DNA of 31,960 nt from an uncultured bacterium. Its GTDB lineage: Bacteria > T1Sed10-126. The DNA lies in the NCBI GenBank assembly GCA_964555265.1, contig CAZKRS010000001.1, positions 1-31,960 on the forward strand, in the 5' to 3' direction. A model generated the notes under the pieces. That model saw only the letters and a program-made list of their open reading frames with translations, was not told where the DNA came from and did no database searches. Of this stretch, positions 6,902 through 18,685 are shown piece by piece (within the stretch, counting starts at the first letter, position 1; every line of letters starts with the position of its first letter). Both the position numbers and the translations under genes were made by a program.

Positions 6902-7013
6902 CGCTTTTTCCTCCTCTTAAAGGTATGTAAAATATTCGAAGTAAATTTATCTTATTTTAACGGTTTCTTCCAGAATTTACAGACATGCCCGGGTAACCGG
7001 GATTTATTTAAAC

Positions 7014-7282
7014 TGTGCTCTCCCGGGGTTCTGGTTACAGATCATCTGTATTCTCCCAGTAATCCATTTACAGATAAATGAGGTTTCTGATTATCGGAAT
7101 TTTATAACCCGCAAGGGACAGGAGGTTCCTGTTATGCGGGATATAAACCTCGGAGCAGCCCGGAGGGCTGCGAGAATGAGATCATCAGAGACCTTATTTA
7201 TTCTTCCCTGGTTTGTAACCAGAACCCTGGGAGAGCACAGATCATCCCTTATCATAAGCACTCTCTGGCGCCCTCATTCTCG
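7014..7282. mobile_element. Relic end of a related element, interrupted by MITE copy 1
   Basis: 7014-7039 is 25/26 identical to the right TIR of MITE copy 1. With the MITE and one TSD removed, CTCTG-N5-CTCATTCTCG (7263-7282) falls at the same offset (23 nt after the TIR) as in the MITE. Confidence 0.55.
7047..7239 (+). mobile_element. 193-bp MITE, copy 1 (TGT...ACA ends, IS481-like by inference)
   Basis: Imperfect 26-bp TIRs (18/26; 11/13 at the tips); 7-bp direct repeat GATCATC at 7040-7046 and 7240-7246; 192/193 identical to the reverse complement of 18269-18461. Confidence 0.93.
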
Positions 7283-7412
7283 AACGCCATCCTTCCGGTG
7301 GGTTCTCACTTTCTCAGGATAGATGTTTCCCATCAGGAAAATATGCGGTAAAATGGTATGCTGGGTATTATCTGTTTATCCACCTCTGGCAGACAATAAC
7401 GGGAGGTTAACG

Positions 7413-7553
7413 ATGGCCAGTCAGCTAACCGAACAGGCCCGCCGGGAAGTCCTGGAGCTTGAAGACGTCGAGTTGGTCTTTGATCCTTCCCGGTCAAAAG
7501 ATATGATTACGGAAGATGGACAGGCCAGGTTGAACGAACCGGGCTATATGTAA
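7413..7553 (+). pseudogene. 46-aa ORF resembling the C-terminal half of DUF59/MIP18 (Fe-S assembly SufT-like) proteins
   Basis: MASQLTEQARREVLELEDVELVFDPSRSKDMITEDGQARL resembles the DUF59 tail after the CP motif (..VELVxDPPW..DM..E.A...L); no Cys and no N-terminal half; GGGAGG RBS present. Confidence 0.5.
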
Positions 7554-7583
7554 TGAAAATTTAGTTGCAGGGAGTCTGTCAAG

Positions 7584-8366
7584 ATGAAAATTATTGCTCT
7601 TATTGAAACGCTGGGTAGATATGGACGTGAAAAAATTGAAGACCTGGGCAAGTTCGGTGTTTTCCTGGGGAAAATATTTCAGACCATTTTTACTCCTCCC
7701 CTGAAAATAAAACGTGTCATTGACCGGATTCACACGATCGGCAGCTCTTCAATAGGGTTAATCTTCCTGATTAGTTCATTTACCGGCGCCGTCCTCGGGC
7801 TGCAGGTTTATTATCAGCTTGTCCAGTTTGGAGCCGCCGCCCGGACGGGGACTGTGGTCTCGCTTTCTTTGATCAGGGAACTGGGACCGGTTGTCTGCGC
7901 CCTGATGATTGCCGGACGGGCGGGGACGGCCATTGCCTCGGAGCTGGGAGTAATGCGGATCTCCGAACAGTTCGACGCCCTGAGCATCATGGATCTAAAT
8001 CCTTTCCGCTATTTTATTGCTCCTATTTTTATTGCTATGATCATCTCCGTCTTTCTGCTCACGACCATATTTAATCTGGTTGGGATCCTGGGCGGATACG
8101 TAGTTAGTGGCGGGCTACTGGCCCTTTCGCGGGGAGCTTATTTTGGGGGGATTGAGGATTTTGTAACCATGTGGGATATCACTAACGGATTAATAAAAGC
8201 CCTGGTTTTTGGGGGAATAGTTGCCTGGGTGAGCTGCTACAAAGGTTATTACTGCCGGCACGGGGCGGAAGGGGTCGGACGTGCCTCAACTGAAACCATG
8301 GTTCACTCCAGTATATTAATTTTAGTTGCCGACTATATCATGACATCAATTATGTTCACCGGTTAG
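7584..8366 (+). CDS. mlaE: Mla/Ttg2 ABC transporter permease
   Basis: RELGPVVCALMIAGRAGTAIASELGVMRISEQFDAL signature; GAEGVGRAST. Confidence 0.95.
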   Translation: MKIIALIETLGRYGREKIEDLGKFGVFLGKIFQTIFTPPLKIKRVIDRIHTIGSSSIGLIFLISSFTGAVLGLQVYYQLVQFGAAARTGTVVSLSLIRELGPVVCALMIAGRAGTAIASELGVMRISEQFDALSIMDLNPFRYFIAPIFIAMIISVFLLTTIFNLVGILGGYVVSGGLLALSRGAYFGGIEDFVTMWDITNGLIKALVFGGIVAWVSCYKGYYCRHGAEGVGRASTETMVHSSILILVADYIMTSIMFTG

Positions 8367-8377
8367 GAGAAAGAACA

Positions 8378-9133
8378 ATGATAGAAGTTAACAACTTACA
8401 TAAATCCCTGGGCGATGAGCAGGTTCTGCAGGGGATTAACCTCTCGATTCAAAAGGGAGAAATGTTTGCTCTTTTAGGGGGAAGCGGAGCCGGGAAATCG
8501 GTGTTGATTAAAAATATAGTCGGATTAATGAATCCCGACCGGGGGGAAGTATTAATAAACAACCAAAACATACATGAGCTGCGGGGAAGCAAGTTGAGCA
8601 AACTGCGCAGCTCGATCGGGATGTTATTCCAGGGGGGCGCTCTTTTTGATTCAATGACCGTCTATGAAAACCTGGCCTTCCCGCTCCGGGAGAAAACAGG
8701 TCTCGCAGAGGAAGAAATATCTACAAAAATCAGCCGGCAGCTCAAGCGGGTGGAACTTCAGGGCAGCGAGCAGAAATATCCGGCCGAACTAAGCGGGGGA
8801 ATGAAAAAAAGAGTTGCCCTGGCCCGCTGTCTTATCCTGGAACCGGAGATAATATTTTTTGACGAGCCAACCACCGGGCTGGACCCCCTGATAAGTAACG
8901 CTATTTTACGTTTAATATATAATATACACCGGGATTTAAAAATTACTGCGATTATAATTACTCATAATTTAGATAAAATATTTCCAATAGTTCAGAAAGC
9001 CGCACTGATCCATGAAGGAAAAATACTTGACTGTAATACACCGGAAAAATTCCTGGAATCGAATGAACCACTTATTAAAAAATTCGTGAACGAAGCAACC
9101 CGGGGACCCCTGGAGGCGATTGGTAATGCGTAA
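8378..9133 (+). CDS. mlaF: Mla ABC transporter ATP-binding subunit
   Basis: Walker A GGSGAGKS, MLFQGGALFDSMTV, LSGGMKKR, Walker B FFDEPT, H-loop; between mlaE and mlaD. Confidence 0.93.
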   Translation: MIEVNNLHKSLGDEQVLQGINLSIQKGEMFALLGGSGAGKSVLIKNIVGLMNPDRGEVLINNQNIHELRGSKLSKLRSSIGMLFQGGALFDSMTVYENLAFPLREKTGLAEEEISTKISRQLKRVELQGSEQKYPAELSGGMKKRVALARCLILEPEIIFFDEPTTGLDPLISNAILRLIYNIHRDLKITAIIITHNLDKIFPIVQKAALIHEGKILDCNTPEKFLESNEPLIKKFVNEATRGPLEAIGNA

Positions 9134-9575
9134 AATAGATTTTTCTGTCGGAATTTTCATCATTGTCGGCCTGCTTGTTCTAACATACATGTCCGTAAAT
9201 TTTGGAGACCTGAATATCCTGGGAACAAACTACTACCGGGTCAGCGCCCGGTTTTCCAACGTCACCGGACTGCAGAGGAACACGGAAGTAGAAATGCTGG
9301 GCATTCCCGTGGGCCGGGTGGATAAAATTCAACTGCGGGAATTTAACCCCACTGTTGAACTGTTAATTAGAGAGGATATTGATCTTCCGGAGGATACAAT
9401 TGCCAGCATCCGGACCCGGGGCCTGCTGGGAGAACAGTATGTTCATCTCTCCCCCGGGGGGCTGCCAATGGATATTCCCAAGGATGGCAGCGGTGAGATC
9501 CTGGAGACCGAATCGCCGCTGATACTGGAAGAAGTAATAGGAAGACTTATCTTTGGTGAAGCGGAGGAAAATTAA
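9126..9575 (+). CDS. mlaD: MlaD single-MCE-domain protein
   Basis: N-terminal TM, ARFSNVTGL, GIPVGRV, IRTRGLLGEQYVHLSPGG; GGAGG RBS 9 nt before ATG 9126. Confidence 0.93.
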   Translation: MRKIDFSVGIFIIVGLLVLTYMSVNFGDLNILGTNYYRVSARFSNVTGLQRNTEVEMLGIPVGRVDKIQLREFNPTVELLIREDIDLPEDTIASIRTRGLLGEQYVHLSPGGLPMDIPKDGSGEILETESPLILEEVIGRLIFGEAEEN

Positions 9576-10319
9576 ATGAGTAAAAAAGCAACAGCTATTA
9601 TTTTAACGGTTGTTTTTTTGTTTAGTTTCTTCCCAACCGTCGTTCTGGCTGAAAATAATGAACCTGAGCCGCAAAAGATTATTGAGGAAGGAATCCGGGA
9701 AGTTCTGCAATTGTTAGAAGATTCCCCGGTATACACCCCGGAAGATCTCCATCGGCTCCGACCAAAAATACAGGATGTTATTGAACCCTTGTTTGGATTT
9801 GAAGAGATCACTCTCCGCACCCTGGGCCGCCACGCCCGAGCAGCCAGTGAAAAACAGCTGGAAAAAATTGTCCCCCTGTATCGCGAACTGCTGGAAAACA
9901 TAATTTTAAACAGTCTCACCCCGATTGTGGAACACTCAAATGAACCACTGCCGATCCCCGAAGTTGAAATTACCGGCAGTGAGAGCAGAGAAAGCGGCGC
10001 GGTCCAATACGCCCGCGTGTTTTCAACCGCCCGGATTAACCCACAAAATGATGAAAAAAGAATGGAAGTAAAACTTAACTACCGGCTGGTCAAGCGGGAA
10101 GAGAACTGGATTGTCTACGATCTGGAAATTGAAGGCGTAAGTATGGTTGGAAACTATCGCTCCCAGTTTGATGATATCATCACCCGCCAATCGCTCGACG
10201 GTTTAATTTCCACTCTTGAGGAACGAATACGCCAGTTTGAAGAAGATCCCCAGAAAGCTCGGGAAGAGGTCGAGGACTGGCTGCCGGATACAGATGAGGA
10301 GCAAAATGATCAACAATAA
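9576..10319 (+). CDS. mlaC: MlaC/Ttg2D periplasmic phospholipid shuttle
   Basis: Signal peptide; YRLVKREENWIVYDLEIEGVSMVGNYRSQF signature; ATG abuts the mlaD stop. Confidence 0.9.
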   Translation: MSKKATAIILTVVFLFSFFPTVVLAENNEPEPQKIIEEGIREVLQLLEDSPVYTPEDLHRLRPKIQDVIEPLFGFEEITLRTLGRHARAASEKQLEKIVPLYRELLENIILNSLTPIVEHSNEPLPIPEVEITGSESRESGAVQYARVFSTARINPQNDEKRMEVKLNYRLVKREENWIVYDLEIEGVSMVGNYRSQFDDIITRQSLDGLISTLEERIRQFEEDPQKAREEVEDWLPDTDEEQNDQQ

Positions 10320-11052
10320 CGCTGAACAATCACGGTTGGCCGTGGTTGTTTTACTGCTTGGTTTTATTAGTTTAAATTTTCTCGCCCCGGGGACAGTTTC
10401 GGGCGAGAACGGGGCAGGTTACGATTTTGAGGACCCTTTTGAAGAAGAGACCGACGAGCTCCGGCCAGATAAAACGGCGGACCCGCTTGAAAGCTGGAAC
10501 AGGGTTGTCTTCGAGGTAAACGATTTTTTCTACCTGAAAATTCTGGACCCGGCAGCCCGGGGCTACCAGGCTGTTACTCCCCGTCCGATGCGCCGGGGGG
10601 TAAGCAACTTCTTCTCTAATTTAAGTGAACCTCTTTATTTTGTTAACTCCCTTCTCCAGCTGGAAGGAAAAGACGCTCATACAGCTTTTGCCCGGTTTAC
10701 AGTAAACAGCACCTTCGGCCTGGGAGGACTGTTTGACGTTGTTGATGATCAGCCAGAGCAGGTTCCTCGCCGGTTCGACCAGACCCTTGCCGTCTGGGGA
10801 ACGGGCCAGGGATTTTACATTGTCTGGCCCTTTCTGGGCCCCGCTACCCTGCGCAGCACCGTCGGGCGTGCCGGAGATACCACACTTGACCCCACCTGGT
10901 ATGCTTCCCCCCGGCTGGGCATGGAAGCAACGGCTGTTTATACCCTGAACGAAGCCCCAAAATGGCTTCAGGAATACGAACAGATGAAAAAATATATGAT
11001 CGATCCTTACAGCGGCGTGAAAAATGCGTACATTGAACAAACAAAATACTGA
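10306..11052 (+). CDS. mlaA: MlaA/VacJ-family protein
   Basis: DPLESWNRVVF, RGVSNFFSNL, RFTVNSTFGLGGLFDV, WPFLGPATLR; GAGGAG RBS before ATG 10306; protein has no Cys. Confidence 0.9.
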   Translation: MINNNAEQSRLAVVVLLLGFISLNFLAPGTVSGENGAGYDFEDPFEEETDELRPDKTADPLESWNRVVFEVNDFFYLKILDPAARGYQAVTPRPMRRGVSNFFSNLSEPLYFVNSLLQLEGKDAHTAFARFTVNSTFGLGGLFDVVDDQPEQVPRRFDQTLAVWGTGQGFYIVWPFLGPATLRSTVGRAGDTTLDPTWYASPRLGMEATAVYTLNEAPKWLQEYEQMKKYMIDPYSGVKNAYIEQTKY

Positions 11053-11068
11053 GAGAAAAATTTACTTC

Positions 11069-11097
11069 TTTACACGGGAAAATAAATAAATTATAGT
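11069..11097 (+). promoter_or_regulatory. sigma70-type promoter for the lipoprotein cluster
   Basis: TTTACA (11069-11074), 17 nt spacer, TATAGT (11092-11097), 43 nt before the lpoB-like ATG. Confidence 0.55.
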
Positions 11098-11140
11098 TGG
11101 TTGTTAGGGACAAAAAAATTTTTTAAGGAGGCTGGGAAAA

Positions 11141-11752
11141 ATGAAAAAAATAGCTGGTGTAATTATTTTACTTTTAGTGAGTTTATTAACCATAAACGGT
11201 TGTGCCCCCGCTCATCCCGAGGTGGCTCGTATTGATCCCGACGAAGATGTTGATTTAACCGGAGAATGGTCGGCGGATGATTCACGGCGGGTAGCCGAAA
11301 CAATGGTCAGCGACGCACTTAACCGGCCCTGGCTGGACAGGTTCCATGAAGAAGAAGGGAAAAGACCAACGGTTATTGTTGGATTATTCAGGAACCGGGG
11401 CGCCCAGCATATTGATCCTGAAATGTTCACAAATGACATTCAGCGAGAACTGATTAATTCCGGCCGGGTAGATTTTGTGGCCGGAGATGAACAGCGGGAA
11501 GCTCTCCGGGAAGAACGACAGGACCAGGCTGAATTTGCCGATCCGGCCACTGCGGCTGCCCTGGGTATGGAAGCCGGGGCCGATTATATGCTCCAGGGAA
11601 CTTTCATCTCCGATACTCAACGAGTTGAAGGGACAAGAGTAATCAGCTACCGGGTGGATATGGAGCTTATGCACCTGCAGACAAACCGTATTGCCTGGCA
11701 GGGCACTGAACGTATACGCAAGAGGGTGGACCAAGCCGGCTGGACCTGGTAA
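11141..11752 (+). CDS. lpoB: LpoB-family (penicillin-binding protein activator-like) lipoprotein
   Basis: Lipobox INGC; PTVIVGLFRNRGAQHID, RELINSGRV, GADYMLQG, LQTNRIAW; AAGGAGG RBS. Confidence 0.8.
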   Translation: MKKIAGVIILLLVSLLTINGCAPAHPEVARIDPDEDVDLTGEWSADDSRRVAETMVSDALNRPWLDRFHEEEGKRPTVIVGLFRNRGAQHIDPEMFTNDIQRELINSGRVDFVAGDEQREALREERQDQAEFADPATAAALGMEAGADYMLQGTFISDTQRVEGTRVISYRVDMELMHLQTNRIAWQGTERIRKRVDQAGWTW

Positions 11753-11754
11753 CA

Positions 11755-13107
11755 TTGCCTGCCTATTTTATGAATTCGGGGGTAATAAATATTAAATTAC
11801 TACGCACTTTTTGCCTCTATATGCTCCTTTTCTTCATCTTTTTAATCTCCGGCTGCGCTCCATCTCTTGACCATTACGAACCGATCTATGAATCACTGCA
11901 CCAGGGAGAATATGAAGAGGTAATCCGAATTCTCGAAGAAGCTCGCGAAGAGAACCGTTACGAGTATAAGGATCGGGTGCTGTATTCCCTGGAAAAAGGT
12001 CTGGCTCTTCATTACGCCGGTCTTTTCGAACGGAGCAACGAACGTTTTGCCCTCGCCGACGAATATATCACTGAACTTTATACCCGTCGTATTTCGGAAG
12101 TGGGATTCTCGTTTTTGACTAATGACAACGATCTCCCCTACCCCGGTGAACCATACGAAGATATCTATTTAAATGTTTTTAAAGCTTTAAATTTTGCGGC
12201 CCTGCGCGATCCACAGGCTGTTTTTGTGGAAGTTAGAAAACTGGATGAAAAATTGTCCTATATGGAAAGAAGATTCCGGGATCTGGCTGAAAGCTACAGT
12301 TCGGGAGCAGCCGGTGAGCTGGGGGAAGATATTGATATGGAAGCCGCAAGGGAAGAAAAAGATTTTCAGCCTGAACAAACACAGTTTCACAGCAGCGCCC
12401 TGGGGCGTTACCTGGGGTTCATTACCCGCCTGCAACTTGGCGAAAAAGACGGTGCAAGAATAGATCTGGAGAATATGCAGCAGGCGTTCTTAAATCAACC
12501 CGCCATCTATAATTTTGATTTTCCCGAACTTCCTTCACTTAATGAACCCCCCCGGGGACAAACCCGGGTTCATTTTTTGGCCGCGCTGGGAAAAGGCCCG
12601 GAAAAATACCAGGTGGAAGATAGAATATCTTATAAGGATCTTTACATAACAATTGCTTATCCCCGACTGCAAAAGCGAGGTACTTCAATTACAAAAGTGG
12701 AGATTTTAAAAAATGGTAACACTGCTGCCACGCTGGAAAAACTGGAAGATGTAAATCTTGTGGCTGAGAATGTTTTTCAGCTCCACCAGCCTTTAATTCA
12801 TGCTAAAGCCCTGGTCCGGGGGATCGGTAAGGCCCTAATCAGCCGGGAAGCGAGAGCTCAAACTGATAATCCCTTCCTGCAGCTTTTTATTCTGGGTCTC
12901 CAGGAAGCGACCGAACAGGCCGATCTGCGCACTACCCGGCTGCTCCCGGGAGAATTTCACGTCGGCTATCATACGGTCCCCACCGGCGAAGAAATTACAT
13001 ACACCGCAAGGTATTATGCGGATGGGTCTTTAATAAAAAGCGAAACAATTACAAAAACTTTTTCTCGTAATGACTTGAACCTTGTTCGTTTGCAAAGTTT
13101 CAAGTAA
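11755..13107 (+). CDS. COG3014-family TPR-like lipoprotein
   Basis: Lipobox ISGC; LYSLEKGLALHYAG helical repeat, PYPGEPYEDIYLN, EQADLRTTRLLP; typical neighbour of LpoB-family genes; start uncertain (TTG 11755 or ATG 11770). Confidence 0.7.
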   Translation: MPAYFMNSGVINIKLLRTFCLYMLLFFIFLISGCAPSLDHYEPIYESLHQGEYEEVIRILEEAREENRYEYKDRVLYSLEKGLALHYAGLFERSNERFALADEYITELYTRRISEVGFSFLTNDNDLPYPGEPYEDIYLNVFKALNFAALRDPQAVFVEVRKLDEKLSYMERRFRDLAESYSSGAAGELGEDIDMEAAREEKDFQPEQTQFHSSALGRYLGFITRLQLGEKDGARIDLENMQQAFLNQPAIYNFDFPELPSLNEPPRGQTRVHFLAALGKGPEKYQVEDRISYKDLYITIAYPRLQKRGTSITKVEILKNGNTAATLEKLEDVNLVAENVFQLHQPLIHAKALVRGIGKALISREARAQTDNPFLQLFILGLQEATEQADLRTTRLLPGEFHVGYHTVPTGEEITYTARYYADGSLIKSETITKTFSRNDLNLVRLQSFK

Positions 13108-13142
13108 AGTGTAGATGACTAAGAAAAAAAGGAAGTGAAATC

Positions 13143-14216
13143 GTGGAAATTAAAAATATTATGTTAATAATTCTGCTTCCACTGCTCCTATTGTCCGTGT
13201 TTTTCAGTTGTGCTCCGGCAGACAGCAAAATTGAAGGAGAAGAAGCCCCACGGTGGTTAACCAACCCCCGCGAGGAATATCCTGAAAATAGATACCTGGT
13301 CGCCCGGGGGCAGGCTCATTCCGAAGCGGGAGCAACTAACAACGCCCGCACCGAAATGGCCAGGATATTCAACCAGCAAATCGAAAGCCAGGAAGTAATC
13401 AGCGAAGAAATACTGGAAACATTTTCTGACGATAATACCGGTAAATTCCAGCAAGAAGTATCACGCCAGCAGCAAATTGTAGTCGAAACCGATGAAGAAA
13501 TCATGGGGTTGGAAATTAAAGAATTTTTCCAGGATAAGAAAAATAATATGTATTACGCCCTGGCAGTTCTTGAACGCAGTTCTGCCCGTAATATATACCG
13601 GGATCATCTTGACCGGGATAATCAACGGTTAAGCAGTTATTATGACCGGGCCCAATCAGAAGATTTAAATAACGTTCAAAAATTACAAAACCTGGCTAAG
13701 GCCCGCGCCCATGCTGAAAATGCGGTAAAACTTCAGCAGCATTTAAAAGTAATCAATCCGGATCGGCAGCCCCCCCGTTTAACCGTAAATCCCGTTGAGA
13801 TTGAACAGAAAATCAATGACCTGTTAAATAAATTAACGATCACCGTCGAACCCATCGAGGAATCAGTTATTTTTGAGCAGCATGAAATTAACCGCCGAAT
13901 AGAAGAATGGATAAACAATACTTTTGCTGATCTTGACTTCCAGATTGCGCCTGAAGAATCAATACTGGCTGTCAAAACTACTTTTAATGCCGACTGGGCG
14001 GACCGGCGCCGGGCGGACGTAACATTTATCCGCTGGAATATAAATATTAGCCTTCATGATAACGACCGGCAGACAGAAATAGGATCAATCTCCTACCAGA
14101 CCCAGAGTGGAGGGATCAATGAGGTTCAGGCTAAAAATAGAACCCAGCGCGATATCCAGAGCTGGATAGAAAATAATCTTTCGGAGTTGATCGTAAGAAC
14201 TTTACTTACCACTTAA
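13143..14216 (+). CDS. LPP20-family lipoprotein with C-terminal extension
   Basis: Lipobox FFSC; PRWLTNP, YLVARGQA, ARTEMAR, YYALAVL typical of LPP20; GTG start. Confidence 0.7.
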   Translation: MEIKNIMLIILLPLLLLSVFFSCAPADSKIEGEEAPRWLTNPREEYPENRYLVARGQAHSEAGATNNARTEMARIFNQQIESQEVISEEILETFSDDNTGKFQQEVSRQQQIVVETDEEIMGLEIKEFFQDKKNNMYYALAVLERSSARNIYRDHLDRDNQRLSSYYDRAQSEDLNNVQKLQNLAKARAHAENAVKLQQHLKVINPDRQPPRLTVNPVEIEQKINDLLNKLTITVEPIEESVIFEQHEINRRIEEWINNTFADLDFQIAPEESILAVKTTFNADWADRRRADVTFIRWNINISLHDNDRQTEIGSISYQTQSGGINEVQAKNRTQRDIQSWIENNLSELIVRTLLTT

Positions 14217-14238
14217 TTTTTTAAAGGAGGTTGTATTT

Positions 14239-14796
14239 ATGTTTTTTCGGAAAACATTTTTTGGGCTTCTAATTTTAACATTAGCGGGAGGATTAATTTT
14301 TGCGGGTTGCTCGCCCCAGGAAGCGGACACGACTGCCGAAGCGGATGCCTGGGGGGAAGATTTTGGCCCCCGGTGGGCAATGAACCTGCCCGAGGAAGAA
14401 AATTCTATTTTCGGGGCCGGAAATGCCCGCTCACGGGACCTTAACAACGCTATTCGACGGGCCAACCTGCAGGCTACTCAGCAAATAGCGCAAGCTATAA
14501 ACCAGACCATCCAGTCCTGGGAAGAAGAATATATCCAGGAAATGGGCGATGCCGCCGATGGGGAAATTCTGCAGGCTTCTGAATCTCTCCTGGAAAGAAT
14601 TGTCGAAGAAGACCTGCAGGGAGTCCGGGAAGTTGAACGAGCCGTCCAGGAAGACGAGGGAGTTTATAACGCCTGGGTCCTTGTCGAGTTAAATTTCGAT
14701 GATCTTGAGAATCAGTTTAGCGAAATGGAACGGCTGGAAACAGAATTTTCGCGCGAGGAAGCACGACGACGGTTCCAGGATCGGCTGGACAACTAA
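14239..14796 (+). CDS. LPP20-family lipoprotein
   Basis: Lipobox FAGC; PRWAMN, IFGAGNA, ANLQATQQIAQ, YNAWVLVEL; AAAGGAGG RBS. Confidence 0.7.
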   Translation: MFFRKTFFGLLILTLAGGLIFAGCSPQEADTTAEADAWGEDFGPRWAMNLPEEENSIFGAGNARSRDLNNAIRRANLQATQQIAQAINQTIQSWEEEYIQEMGDAADGEILQASESLLERIVEEDLQGVREVERAVQEDEGVYNAWVLVELNFDDLENQFSEMERLETEFSREEARRRFQDRLDN

Positions 14797-14811
14797 AATT
14801 TAACAGAAAAA

Positions 14812-14850
14812 CCCCGGGTGGTGCTTTTAAAACCACCCGGGGAAATTTTT
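14812..14850 (+). terminator. Stem-loop, probable intrinsic terminator or processing site
   Basis: CCCCGGGTGGT (14812-14822) pairs with ACCACCCGGGG (14832-14842), 11-bp perfect stem; A-run before, AAATTTTT after. Confidence 0.7.
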
Positions 14851-14890
14851 ACCGGAAATCCTTTCTTCAACCAGGGGAGGCCTACTTTAG

Positions 14891-15850
14891 ATGTTCAAGA
14901 CGCTCCAATTAGTCACTCCCGTCTTAATTTTAATGTTTTTTTTACCCCTTGAAACTACCGCAGCTAACCTGGAGATCTACCATATAGAAGGGAACGCCGA
15001 GGTTCGTTCGCCCGAACGGGAAGATTGGGGAAAAATTGAACCCGAAGATGAAATTTCACCGGCAAGCGAATTACGAATTGACAGCGGGTCTTTTCTTGAA
15101 GTGGAAATAGCCGGAGCTCACAGGGTTCGTTTCAACGAAAAAACCGGGATGAAATTTAACCTGGACGATGCTTCCGATTCTCTCAACCTGTACTACGGTT
15201 CGATTGAAATTGAACTTGTTCCCGAACAAATGACCGATTTCGACGATGATCTGACCGTCCATACACCGGTTAGTATAATGGGAGTCCGGGGAACTCAATT
15301 CAAAACATCATACGAAATGGAACAGACAAACTGGACGGGCGTGGACCGGGGAGCCGTATGGTTCGAAGCTGACACCAGGACAGAACTTGCCGCCGGCACG
15401 GGGGTTGATGTTGAACCCGACACCCCCGGTGGTAAACCCTCCCTCACCCGGCTGGGCGAAATCAGGGAAGAGTTGCACCTCACATGGGACCACTGGACAG
15501 AAAGACAACGGGTGAAGAGGTTTGAACAGATGCTTGTTGACTTAAATGAAGAAATTTATGAAATTGAAGAGCAACTCAACACCGAGCCGCTTCCCCGCCA
15601 GCACAGAAGTATGAAACGAAGACTTCAACAACTTAAAAATAGAAAAGAACAGATAGAAAACCGGTTAGAACCGGTCCGGGAAGCACTGGCAGATATACAA
15701 CAAAGATACAGCTCCTATCGGGAAGAACTTGAGGAACGTCGCCAGGATTTCATTGAAAATCGCCAGGAAGCTTTTGCGGATTTTATCGAAGAAAGAGAAG
15801 AAAGGTTTGAAGAATTCAGAGAAAGACGCCAGGAAAGACGCCGGGAATAA
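14891..15850 (+). CDS. Exported FecR-domain protein with C-terminal charged coiled coil
   Basis: Signal peptide; VHTPVSIMGVRGTQF FecR motif; E/R/Q-rich helical tail; GGGGAGG RBS. Confidence 0.75.
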   Translation: MFKTLQLVTPVLILMFFLPLETTAANLEIYHIEGNAEVRSPEREDWGKIEPEDEISPASELRIDSGSFLEVEIAGAHRVRFNEKTGMKFNLDDASDSLNLYYGSIEIELVPEQMTDFDDDLTVHTPVSIMGVRGTQFKTSYEMEQTNWTGVDRGAVWFEADTRTELAAGTGVDVEPDTPGGKPSLTRLGEIREELHLTWDHWTERQRVKRFEQMLVDLNEEIYEIEEQLNTEPLPRQHRSMKRRLQQLKNRKEQIENRLEPVREALADIQQRYSSYREELEERRQDFIENRQEAFADFIEEREERFEEFRERRQERRRE

Positions 15851-15878
15851 ACTTGCAAACTTAAATTTTACCTGCCGG

Positions 15879-16733
15879 TTATCCCGGTTCGACATGTATA
15901 AATATCCGCTCGATTTTATTTATTTCTTTTAGTTTTTCTCTTAATTTCTCTTCCGCCGCATGAACTTCTCCCAGCGGGCGGCTGGATTCTGTCTCCACGA
16001 TAAGTGAAATATGAACCCGGGGACCAACAAAATGGGTCTTTATACCGGTCGGGCCGTAAAAATTATTATCATCGGCCACAATTTTCTTTATTTTATCAAC
16101 CAGGTCCTCGGGGGCGGCCCGGCCCGTGATATGGTTTACGTTCTCAATTAAAGTCCCTACTCCTACTTTCATAATTGCGAAGGCCATCAACAGGGCCACC
16201 AGGGGATCCAACCAGCGCCAGCCCACTGCCGCCGTAACAAGAGCAACCAGCACAGTCAGATCGGCAAGAATATCACTGGCCTGGTCCCGCCCCAGTGCTT
16301 TCACAGCGGGAGAATGCAACTTTTTACCTTCCCGCATGCAGTGCCAGGAAAGGACAGCTTTTATCGCCATTGAACCGGCAATTACCACAATCCCGGCCGG
16401 ATTAAGTGTTACCCGCCGACCGTAGTAAAAAGTCCAGCCGGCGTCATACAGAACATACAGTCCCGAAACTGTAATTATAAGCCCCACAAATATTCCCACC
16501 AGTGATTCAAAACGCTGGTGACCCTCGGGATGATTGGCATCCGGAGGTTGAATGCTCACCCATAGCCCCAGGTAAAGAACAATACCGTATAAAAAATCAG
16601 CCGCATTGTTAAAACCAACCGACCTCAAAGCCGAGGAATCAAGCCAGAATCCCACCCATAACTTGAGAACCGATAATCCCAGGCTGATGATCAATAATAA
16701 ATATACTGGCCGCAATACCTGCTTGCTCTTCAA
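15879..16733 (-). CDS. Cation diffusion facilitator (MntE/FieF-like metal exporter)
   Basis: GFNNAAD (TM2), DANHPEGHQRFE, DQASD (TM5), C-terminal dimerisation domain ending IHVEP. Confidence 0.93.
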   Translation of the reverse strand: MKSKQVLRPVYLLLIISLGLSVLKLWVGFWLDSSALRSVGFNNAADFLYGIVLYLGLWVSIQPPDANHPEGHQRFESLVGIFVGLIITVSGLYVLYDAGWTFYYGRRVTLNPAGIVVIAGSMAIKAVLSWHCMREGKKLHSPAVKALGRDQASDILADLTVLVALVTAAVGWRWLDPLVALLMAFAIMKVGVGTLIENVNHITGRAAPEDLVDKIKKIVADDNNFYGPTGIKTHFVGPRVHISLIVETESSRPLGEVHAAEEKLREKLKEINKIERIFIHVEPG

Positions 16734-16975
16734 TTTTATCCCTCATCCGGGGCTGAAAAAGATTAATTTTTAAAGATAATAACCCGATATTATATCACCC
16801 TTGAATTGTTTTTTGAAAATTAATGATTTAAAAATCAATCCCAGGCCTTTATCCTTAAAGTACAGGGGCGGTATATTTCAATTCTAAAATTTTCGCCGGG
16901 CGCCATTTTTTACGGGACATTTTAAATATAATGCGTTAAGCTAAATCACAATAAAAATTGCAGCGGAGGTTTGAA

Positions 16976-18106
16976 ATGAATCCCGTTAATTCCGTTTTAG
17001 GGCCCCGCCGGGTGACCTGGGAAATGACGCAGGTCAGCACAATTGACTGTCTTCACTGGCGGATAGAGAGCAAAAACAAGCCCGATCCGGATGAACTAAC
17101 CACCAGGGAAGGTAAGAACTTAATAGATCAACTGGATGAGCTGGGCACCAGGAGATTGATCCTGGCCGGCGGTGATCCTCTTGAACGCAACGATCTTGGC
17201 GAGCTAATACAATACGCCCGGGAAAAAAACATAAAATTAACCCTCCAGGCAACTCCCTCGGATAAACTTGTATCAAAAGTTATCAATGATTTTTCCCGGG
17301 AAGGTTTTTTTCGGATCAGTCTCCCCCTTGACGCTCCTTATCCCGAACTGCACAACAAATTCTGGAACAAAAAAAATGTTTTCCAGGATACAATCGAACT
17401 TGCGTATGAAATCCGGGAAAATGAAATGCCCCTGCAGATTAACACCGTGATTACCAGCCAGAGTGCTCCCCTGATGGCTGATCTATTTTTGAAAATTTCT
17501 TCTTTAAATCCCGTGACCTGGAAAATTTATTTCCTGGTCCCCACCGGCGGTGATGAAACTTTCCAGCCCCCCGGATTCCACGTTACAAGAATAATTTTTG
17601 AAGAAATTTACGAGCTGGAGCAAGAGGTAAATTTTGAAATATTAGCGGTGGAAGCTCCCTACTACAACAGGTTCTGGCTGGAAAATAAAACTGAAGAACT
17701 GGGGATTAACCTCGAGCAGTATACTTCGACACTAAATCCACTTTCCGTGGAAAAAGTTGATGAGTTTCTGCGGAAAAAAATAACGTTCAACCCGAAAAGA
17801 TTTCGCCGCCAGCCGGGGCGGGAGAGTTTGTTCATAAATCACCGGGGAACGGTTTACCCGGGCCGGTTCTTACCGCTGGAATGCGGCAACCTGCGCACGC
17901 AATCAATCAGGGAGATATTCCGGGACTCCCCCGTGTTAAAACAACTGCGAAATCCTTTAGAACTTGGTGGCTGCTGTCAAAAAACCAACTGCTGGGCCCG
18001 GGAAATATGTGGGGGATCCCGGGGCCGGGCTTACTTCTTTTCAGGCGACCACATGGGAACCGATCCTCTCTGTTTCTACCATGCCTTAAAAACCATGCGA
18101 CCTTAG
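16976..18106 (+). CDS. Radical SAM/SPASM-fold protein (TIGR04053/AhbD-NirJ-like) with degenerate SAM-cluster motif
   Basis: WEMTQVSTIDCLHWR where CxxxCxxC is expected; GGDPL, QINTVIT, FLVPTG, EAPYY and C-terminal CGGSRGRAY..DPLC retained; GGAGGT RBS before ATG 16976. Confidence 0.85.
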   Translation: MNPVNSVLGPRRVTWEMTQVSTIDCLHWRIESKNKPDPDELTTREGKNLIDQLDELGTRRLILAGGDPLERNDLGELIQYAREKNIKLTLQATPSDKLVSKVINDFSREGFFRISLPLDAPYPELHNKFWNKKNVFQDTIELAYEIRENEMPLQINTVITSQSAPLMADLFLKISSLNPVTWKIYFLVPTGGDETFQPPGFHVTRIIFEEIYELEQEVNFEILAVEAPYYNRFWLENKTEELGINLEQYTSTLNPLSVEKVDEFLRKKITFNPKRFRRQPGRESLFINHRGTVYPGRFLPLECGNLRTQSIREIFRDSPVLKQLRNPLELGGCCQKTNCWAREICGGSRGRAYFFSGDHMGTDPLCFYHALKTMRP

Positions 18107-18165
18107 AAGTGTGAAAGTGTGAAAGTGTGAAAGTGTGAAAGTGTGAAAGTGTGAAAGTGTGAAAG
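18107..18165. repeat. Octanucleotide tandem repeat (AAGTGTGA) x7 plus AAG
   Basis: Seven perfect units beginning at the base after the TAG stop at 18104-18106. Confidence 0.98.
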
Positions 18166-18268
18166 CAAAAACGGGAAAATCTAACAGGTCAGAAGGCGAA
18201 CTGGCGCAAAAATTTTGGCTAAAATCAAAGACGACGAAAGTCAAACACCTACCGGTCTAAAATTTATG

Positions 18269-18461
18269 TGTGCTCTCCCAGGGTTTTGGTTACAAACCAG
18301 GGAAGAATAAATAAGGTCTCTGATGATCTCATTCTCGCAGCCCTCCGGGCTGCTCCGAGGTTTATATCCCGCATAACAGGAACCTCCTGTCCCTTGCGGG
18401 TTATAAAATTCCGATAATCAGAAACCTCATTTATCTGTAAATGGATTACTGGGAGAATACA
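18269..18461 (-). mobile_element. 193-bp MITE, copy 2 (inverted relative to copy 1)
   Basis: One mismatch to copy 1 (at 18286); 7-bp direct repeat ATTTATG at 18262-18268 and 18462-18468. Confidence 0.93.
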
Positions 18462-18463
18462 AT

Positions 18464-18685
18464 TTATGATTGGCTGAGCGGGCAGCTTCCGTCGGTGCAA
18501 TCCCGGGGCTGGCAGGCCGGCGGCGGGGCTTGAGACCGGTTTCCCACGGCAAACCTGCTCAACTGCCGGGTAGTCTCTAAACTGCCGCAGCGGGGGCATT
18601 CAGCCTCCTTATCACGGTTATCGCTGCCTCGTCTGAGACTAAAGCCCTCGCCACATTCATTGCAGTTGTAACGATAAGTGGGCAT
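18464..18685 (-). CDS. FmdB-family zinc-ribbon protein
   Basis: MPTYRYNCNECG...CPRCGS signature, plus Cys58/63/68 tail; AAGGAGG RBS. Confidence 0.88.
   Translation of the reverse strand: MPTYRYNCNECGEGFSLRRGSDNRDKEAECPRCGSLETTRQLSRFAVGNRSQAPPPACQPRDCTDGSCPLSQS

Follow-up and report, generated by a model that had tools for sequence, protein, structure and literature searches.

Two copies of a probable non-autonomous transposon with a conserved three-way-junction core in a soda-lake-sediment diderm chromosome

Introduction

[quoted passage not shown] One of them, QMITE2 of Coxiella burnetii, has direct repeats of 7–9 bp, TIRs of 23–29 bp and a core of 113–145 bp (PMC10969869). In the Bacillus cereus group, the bcr1 repeat is ~155 bp long, is flanked by 5-bp direct repeats and is transcribed, and compensatory changes keep its cruciform-like RNA (PMC3184786). 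Here, we analyse the 31,960-nt contig CAZKRS010000001.1 of an uncultured bacterium (the whole stretch is referred to as the window), in which an original prediction, made from the letters alone, had marked two 193-bp repeats as MITEs. The element sequences were compared with those of related soda-lake contigs (loci designated L0xx). We conclude, with a probability of about 0.85, that the repeats are two copies of a non-autonomous transposon family (family A) in the chromosome of a soda-lake-sediment diderm bacterium, and that their interior is a conserved three-way junction.

The element shares with QMITE2 and other prokaryotic MITEs all of the general properties listed above, and its direct repeats and TIRs are similar in length to those of QMITE2. 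It differs in having no sequence similarity to them, in having no parent insertion sequence (IS) with its TIRs in the collections searched, in making a TSD of strictly 7 bp with a T-W-A centre, and in containing a core that is a three-way junction common to diverged subfamilies rather than a simple long hairpin. Like bcr1, it is a small mobile repeat with an internal fold kept by compensatory base changes; unlike bcr1, which is transcribed, it is known from DNA alone, and the host lineage, TSD length and sequence are different. Apart from a known autonomous partner, the element has all the structural features expected of prokaryotic MITEs, and it is a new family of a well-known element type.

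Termini of the form TG...CA point to the retroviral-integrase (rve) superfamily of transposases. IS481 elements have TGT ends, TSDs of 4–15 bp and a palindromic NCTAGN target; IS21 elements have TG ends and TSDs of 4–8 bp; and Tn552-type elements have TSDs of 6–7 bp. The element described here resembles the IS481 family in its TGT...ACA termini, its TSD of a few base pairs and its symmetric target; it differs in lacking a transposase gene, and the collections searched yielded no member of that family that has its TIRs. With IS21 and Tn552-type elements, which encode an rve transposase and an ATPase, it shares TG...CA termini, left and right ends that are differentiated from each other, and a TSD in the same size range; unlike in those elements, no repeated subterminal transposase sites were recognised in it, and no partner element was found in the same collections.

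Results

Each window copy has its own 7-bp target-site duplication

The two window copies form an inverted pair, copy 1 at 7047–7239 (+) and copy 2 at 18269–18461 (−), that match at 192 of 193 nt, the sole difference being G7222 versus T18286 (both on the + strand). A repeat finder returned inverted arms 7047–7242 and 18266–18461 with 99% complementarity. Both copies are 193 bp in size, start with TGT, end with ACA, and have imperfect 26-bp TIRs (TGTATTCTCCCAGTAATCCATTTACA and TGTGCTCTCCCAGGGTTCTGGTTACA; 17 of 26 positions identical), beyond which weaker inverted similarity extends ~25 nt inward. Exact 7-bp TSDs, GATCATC for copy 1 and ATTTATG for copy 2, flank the copies (Table 1). The near-identical inverted pair, its TGT...ACA ends, its imperfect TIRs and its individual TSDs, all of which the original prediction had described, were reproduced, and the independent transposition that it had deduced from them is supported by the distinctness of the two TSDs and by the presence of 7-bp TSDs at further insertions in related contigs. 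Loose ends with many different flanks sit exactly at 7047, 7239 and 7014, confirming the element boundaries; mixed-consensus loose ends at 7047 were not used as evidence for orthologous insertions. A degenerate TIR pattern has five matches in the window, as compared to none in 100 shuffles, and the fifth match (7014–7039) had been overlooked previously.

Table 1. Coordinates of the elements, their ends, the duplications and the predicted core within the window
Feature	Position	Strand	Basis or remark
MITE family A copy 1, 193 bp	7047..7239	+	TTTACA-type TIR first
Left TIR of copy 1, TGTATTCTCCCAGTAATCCATTTACA	7047..7072	+	TIR pattern
Right TIR of copy 1 (inward reading: TGTGCTCTCCCAGGGTTCTGGTTACA)	7214..7239	−	TIR pattern
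TSD GATCATC, left copy	7040..7046	.	Also positions 27–33 of the older family B element
TSD GATCATC, right copy	7240..7246	.	Exact repeat
Inward-reading promoter-like site in left end (TTTACA, 16 nt, GATTAT)	7067..7094	+	Absent in family B
Three-way-junction core of copy 1	7080..7196	+	Folding; covariance model match, 106 bits
P1 of copy 1 core	7080–7095 with 7180–7195	+	Predicted fold
J12 (GGAAU) of copy 1 core	7096–7100	+	Predicted fold
P2 of copy 1 core	7101–7147	+	Predicted fold
J23 (CCUCGGAG) of copy 1 core	7148–7155	+	Predicted fold
P3 of copy 1 core	7155–7171	+	Predicted fold
J31 (CGAGAAUGAG) of copy 1 core	7171–7180	+	Predicted fold
Older family B element, part 1: 26-bp TIR TGTGCTCTCCCGGGGTTCTGGTTACA and GATCATC	7014..7046	+	TIR pattern; alignment to L022
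Older family B element, part 2, resuming past nested copy 1	7247..7292	+	Homology lost inside P3; loose end at 7292
MITE family A copy 2, 193 bp	18269..18461	−	Repeat and TIR pattern
Left TIR of copy 2	18436..18461	−	TIR pattern
Right TIR of copy 2, holding the sole difference (18286)	18269..18294	+	TIR pattern
TSD ATTTATG	18262..18268	.	Exact repeat
TSD ATTTATG with TAA stop (18466–18464, − strand) of zinc-ribbon open reading frame 18464–18685	18462..18468	.	Exact repeat
Three-way-junction core of copy 2	18312..18428	−	Covariance model match

Copy 1 is nested in an older element of a second family

Excising copy 1 together with one GATCATC joins 7014–7046 to 7247–7292, and the joined sequence is identical at 77 of 79 positions to the first 79 nt of an intact element of a second family, family B, in L022. 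The uninterrupted family B copies in L022 and L023 read ...GGTTACAGATCATCCCTTATCAG..., and since such intact paralogues serve as empty sites, the 7-bp duplication is seen directly. This alignment shows that copy 1 landed in positions 27–33 of a family B element. Homology to family B stops inside hairpin P3, indicating that the older element was later truncated. Neither the nested insertion nor its truncated host had been recognised in the original prediction. The truncated element starts 12 nt after a GC-rich hairpin (6988–7001) that is followed by an AT-rich run.

Three families share their ends and a symmetric target

Among GTDB species representatives, the TIR was found only in the metagenome-assembled genome (MAG) CAZVWJ01 (binchicken_co77_20), where it occurs 15 times, in several cases at the end of a contig. 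A metagenome scan added 23 places, nearly all of which come from JGI Ga0207421 and one soda-lake sediment sample of Kulunda type, and a distant blastn search of a plasmid collection with the element yielded no match. MAG CAZVWJ01 and the JGI soda-lake metagenomes hold dozens of copies with the same ends, which range from 95 to 406 bp and fall into three families: family A (193 bp, the window type, with deletion derivatives of 151 and 95 bp), family B (193–194 bp, plus a 248-bp variant), and family C (337–406 bp). Families A and B are only 53–68% identical and nevertheless are both 193–194 bp long, and this equality, as seen in the aligned copies, suggests a length constraint on the element.

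The original prediction had named the lack of TSDs at other copies as the observation that would speak against it; 20 distinct insertions (both window copies and 18 further ones) were found to carry 7-bp duplications, 15 of them perfect and 5 matching at six of seven positions. Read in the orientation of the element, position 3 of the heptamer is T and position 5 is A in all 20 insertions, and position 4 is A or T in 18 of the 20, yielding a symmetric consensus, NNTWANN, with an A+T content of 81%. Such a fixed stagger and symmetric target would be the product of a dimeric DDE transposase. The target sites are AT-rich and intergenic, often at TAA stop codons, and the copies lie in both orientations, with no orientation bias relative to neighbouring genes. 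Transfer RNA (tRNA) genes lie 24–45 nt from two of the copies (L025 408–493 and L033 735–821). The differences between the left and right TIRs are kept in all families and are not compensated, indicating that the TIRs act in the manner expected of protein-binding sites, and the core in that of a fold.

Several variant copies depart from the standard layout. A family C copy (L039 8893–9229) has two modules in tandem, the second lacking P2, and in another copy (L035 1–192) the left end is that of family A and is succeeded by a hairpin-CCUCGGA-hairpin module of a different sequence; the tandem module and the swapped module indicate that the family is modular. Family A internal-deletion derivatives are present in L030 (1674–1768, 95 bp), L027 (3013–3163, 151 bp) and L021 (1812–1916, cut by the contig end), with breakpoints at the short direct repeats AATGAG, GAGGTT and GAAT. 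Many contigs end in or just past a TIR: L003, L007, L009 and L015 of CAZVWJ01, and L017, L018, L024 and L031 of Ga0207421. In these MAGs and metagenomes, assemblies are often broken by the MITEs.

The interior folds as a covarying three-way junction

In an alignment of families A, B and C, conservation is confined to the TIRs and three short internal strands, and the sequence between them differs yet folds alike. The common layout is TIR, P1(5′), CGGAWUUU, P2 hairpin, A(A/U)ACCUCGGAG, P3 hairpin, CGAGAAUGAG, P1(3′), TIR. Independent minimum-free-energy folds of five versions (families A, B and C, TIR-less L008, and C-like L005) gave one shared three-way junction, with z-scores of −6.5 to −8.6 and with the forward strand more stable than the reverse by 5–6 kcal/mol. 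The helices are freely exchanged: P2 occurs as at least five unrelated sequences, and P3 occurs as CAGCC/GGCTG, CGGCC/GGCCG, AACGC/GCGTT, ATTCG/CGAAT, TCCAG/CTGGA and CCCAG/CTGGG, and, in some family B copies, as a 72-nt arm.

Covariation was assessed in a gapless, junction-anchored alignment with hairpin tips trimmed. Paired cells amount to 89%, as compared to 32–46% when the partners are slid by 1–3 columns; 26 of the 35 pairs have changed on both sides; and the covariation score is 0.574, as compared to 0.19 for shuffled alignments, with none of 500 shuffles scoring as high. A covariance model built from an untrimmed MAFFT alignment yields the same picture, recovering all copies at 90–121 bits, and a scan of the window with this model revealed no copy beyond those known. 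On these comparative grounds the interior is not filler: the junction strands are invariant, and compensatory changes keep the fold across families A, B and C. This conserved, covarying core had been missed in the original prediction.

The core has no counterpart in Rfam 15: the window has no match at gathering thresholds, and five loci have no family match on the element at E≤10 other than the spurious mir-934, PK-BYV and CRISPR-DR15 (18–23 bits, as compared to gathering thresholds of 36–80); the only above-threshold matches in the five loci are the two tRNA genes that flank MITEs. Hammerhead, twister, pistol and hatchet ribozymes and attC, guanidine-II and k-turn resemblances were considered, and none fits the invariant strands. 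Two matches to the core motif in viral contigs are both GC-rich coding sequence without hairpins and were set aside as chance. It is only an idea, suggested by the letters of the internal loop next to P3 (GGA opposite GA), that this loop could form tandem G·A pairs in the manner of a k-junction.

Two junction modules lack recognisable TGT TIRs: one in L008 (7043–7160, − strand) with a 21-bp P1 and no TSD, and one in L005 (1626–1796) that resembles the inner part of family C and in which P3 is 71 nt long. These are either decayed elements or stand-alone modules.

Copy number and relative age

The depth of the exact core in Logan unitigs is 63, 77 and 47 in runs X1, X2 and X3, respectively, as compared to 5.6–9.6, 6.0–6.4 and 3.4 for unique flanks. 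The ratio corresponds to about 7–14 copies per genome equivalent, or 30–45 with variants summed, values that are upper bounds because community relatives also carry the element. Family A has at least 14 other flanks in one metagenome, Ga0207421. Both lines of evidence uphold the high copy number that had been proposed from two copies.

Young members of family A (the two window copies and those in L028, L032 and L037) are 95–99.5% identical and have perfect TSDs, and older copies (L020 and L025) are 85–87% identical and have decayed TSDs, indicating a recent burst on top of earlier activity. The earlier description of the family as recently active stands in so far as it concerns this young subfamily and the nesting of copy 1; as to its other expected sign, a site without the insertion, a paralogous empty site was found for copy 1 in the intact family B copies, and no allelic one was seen at any of three loci in Logan contigs.

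Search for a parent element

Degenerate TIR patterns were scanned against genome, metagenome and viral contigs, and all loci (219 kb) were searched under relaxed conditions, with up to 3 mismatches, for inverted TIR pairs separated by no more than 3 kb. None of the collections or loci yielded a TIR pair 0.5–3 kb apart or a transposase. Only pairs of MITE size and chance matches were obtained, one of the latter inside the mlaF-like ABC ATPase gene (8378–9133). Two further candidates were rejected: the L035 copy as the end of a parent IS, in which the left 80 nt are family A and the new sequence is the swapped module described above; and long loose ends at 7126 and before 7147 (X3), which are further module and P2 variants.

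Genomic setting

A Pfam scan of the open reading frames (ORFs) identifies the window as ordinary chromosomal DNA of a diderm bacterium. The genes include dapF, thiF, dtd, a FIST protein gene, an mlaEFDCA cluster, and genes for LpoB, a CDF transporter, a radical-SAM/SPASM protein, a LolA-like protein, an MMPL protein, a 2-oxoacid:ferredoxin oxidoreductase and ilvD. None of the 30 window ORFs has a transposase domain, in agreement with the original prediction. Copy 1 sits upstream of the mla cluster, between divergent genes, and copy 2 directly follows a 73-aa zinc-ribbon ORF with its TAA stop inside the duplicated 7 bp. Public runs containing the locus all come from metagenomes of soda lakes and salt lakes, dated 2012 to 2022.

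The element itself contains only short ORFs, which are not conserved in family B. One frame is open across all 193 bp of family A (64 codons) and closed in family B, and it gives rise to a spurious 111-aa ORF across copy 2 (18264–18599, − strand). The inward promoter-like site of family A is roughly present in family C and absent from family B.

Right after the radical-SAM/SPASM stop lies a tandem array of ~7 copies of the 8-bp unit AAGTGTGA (18099–18173). In the soda-lake runs, this repeat has a word depth of 570–1800, as compared to ~6 for the flanks, which are many and varied. It resembles a microsatellite and is very abundant in this community.

Discussion

We propose that a DDE transposase encoded elsewhere would bind the two differentiated 26-bp ends (TGT...TTACA) and join them to DNA that has been cut at NNTWANN targets with a stagger of 7 bp, and that repair of the stagger would then yield the 7-bp duplication. 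The TG...CA termini suggest an enzyme of the rve superfamily, such as an IS481, IS21 or Tn552-like transposase. Copy 1 inserted into an older family B element, which was later truncated. Our best guess for the core is that the element needs it in cis, as a fold, in order to propagate; the fold could act as RNA or, during transposition, in DNA that is single-stranded or extruded.

Other origins of the repeats, namely segmental or inverted duplication, an assembly artefact, or REP/BIME-like palindromes moved by a Y1 (RAYT) enzyme, appear highly improbable. Such origins would account for an inverted arrangement of copies only 11 kb apart, for an interior rich in hairpins, and for the near absence of independent contig support at the left junction of copy 2 (18170–18268); they do not account for exact boundaries with an individual TSD at each copy or for the differing sequences of the duplications at the 20 insertions, and independent contigs of several runs span three of the four junctions. 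REP/RAYT and IS200/IS605 elements (Y1/HUH), unlike the elements here, have subterminal hairpins only and are not known to make a TSD or to have TIRs. A narrower proposal, that the family is derived from and moved by an IS481-family insertion sequence, as the original prediction had favoured, is a reasonable choice and possible, with the odds against it: the TGT...ACA ends, a 7-bp TSD within the 4–15 bp range and a symmetric target that recalls NCTAGN all agree with such a parent, whereas the ends and TSD are fitted equally well by IS21 and Tn552-type elements, and none of the scans revealed a full-length element with these TIRs, IS481-like or other.

An alternative that concerns the core alone takes it to be a functional structured RNA (a small RNA, a ribozyme or a protein-binding RNA), with the MITE as its vehicle and selection acting on the transcript; we regard this as tentative and rather less than an even bet. 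Invariant junction strands between covarying helices, the better folding of the forward strand, the excess of G·U over A·C pairs, the inward promoter-like site in families A and C, and the precedent of bcr1, a transcribed repeat with a fold kept by compensatory changes (PMC3184786), are as this alternative predicts. Pulling the other way are the lack of any Rfam family match even at E≤10, the lack of RNA runs containing the element among those found, the almost purely Watson–Crick composition of P2 and P3 with no strand bias, the absence of the promoter-like site from family B, and the presence of copies in both orientations relative to neighbouring genes.

Several observations weigh against our own reading of a trans-mobilised MITE with a core that is needed in cis. 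The full-length IS with the same TIRs that the original prediction had proposed to look for was absent from the genome, metagenome and viral contigs and from the 219 kb of loci; since no autonomous partner was found, mobilisation in trans is itself deduced, and since assemblies often drop IS copies, the absence is weak evidence. No empty-site allele was found at either window locus or at L037 in Logan contigs, in which rare variants cannot show; a joint in X3 that skips 200 nt, considered as an empty allele, has a short side of exactly 23 TIR nt (7014–7036) and is another family B copy. The covariation comes from only about 5–7 independent lineages, in an alignment with anchoring chosen with the structure in mind. 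The excess of G·U (39 cells) over A·C (19 cells) is modest, arises mainly in P1 and is absent from P2 and P3, and these counts do not distinguish a fold in RNA from one in single-stranded or extruded DNA, or identify the acting strand. Deletion derivatives without most of the core (L030, 95 bp; L027, 151 bp) keep intact TSDs, indicating that the core may not be needed for persistence, and no RNA-seq runs containing the element were found.

The combination of invariant strands (CGGAWUUU / ACCUCGGAG / CGAGAAUGAG) and covarying helices could define a new class of transposon-carried structured nucleic acid, an outcome that we consider unlikely. If it were so, the class would comprise either an RNA spread by MITEs (catalytic, protein-binding or regulatory) or a folded single-stranded DNA signal needed in cis by an rve-type transposase, and in the latter case DDE transposition would include a step that depends on structure, which would be unusual. 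For practical purposes, the family is of use in annotating soda-lake MAGs, in which these repeats break assemblies and many contigs end in them. The three diverged subfamilies have kept one length class and one three-way junction, and their invariant junctions with fully exchanged stems are a pattern that is normal for functional RNAs and not for transposon filler. If the fold is needed for mobility or is active as RNA, the family, with its many copies, its deletion derivatives and its variants with swapped P3 arms, would provide a tractable natural system in which to ask what MITE cores do.

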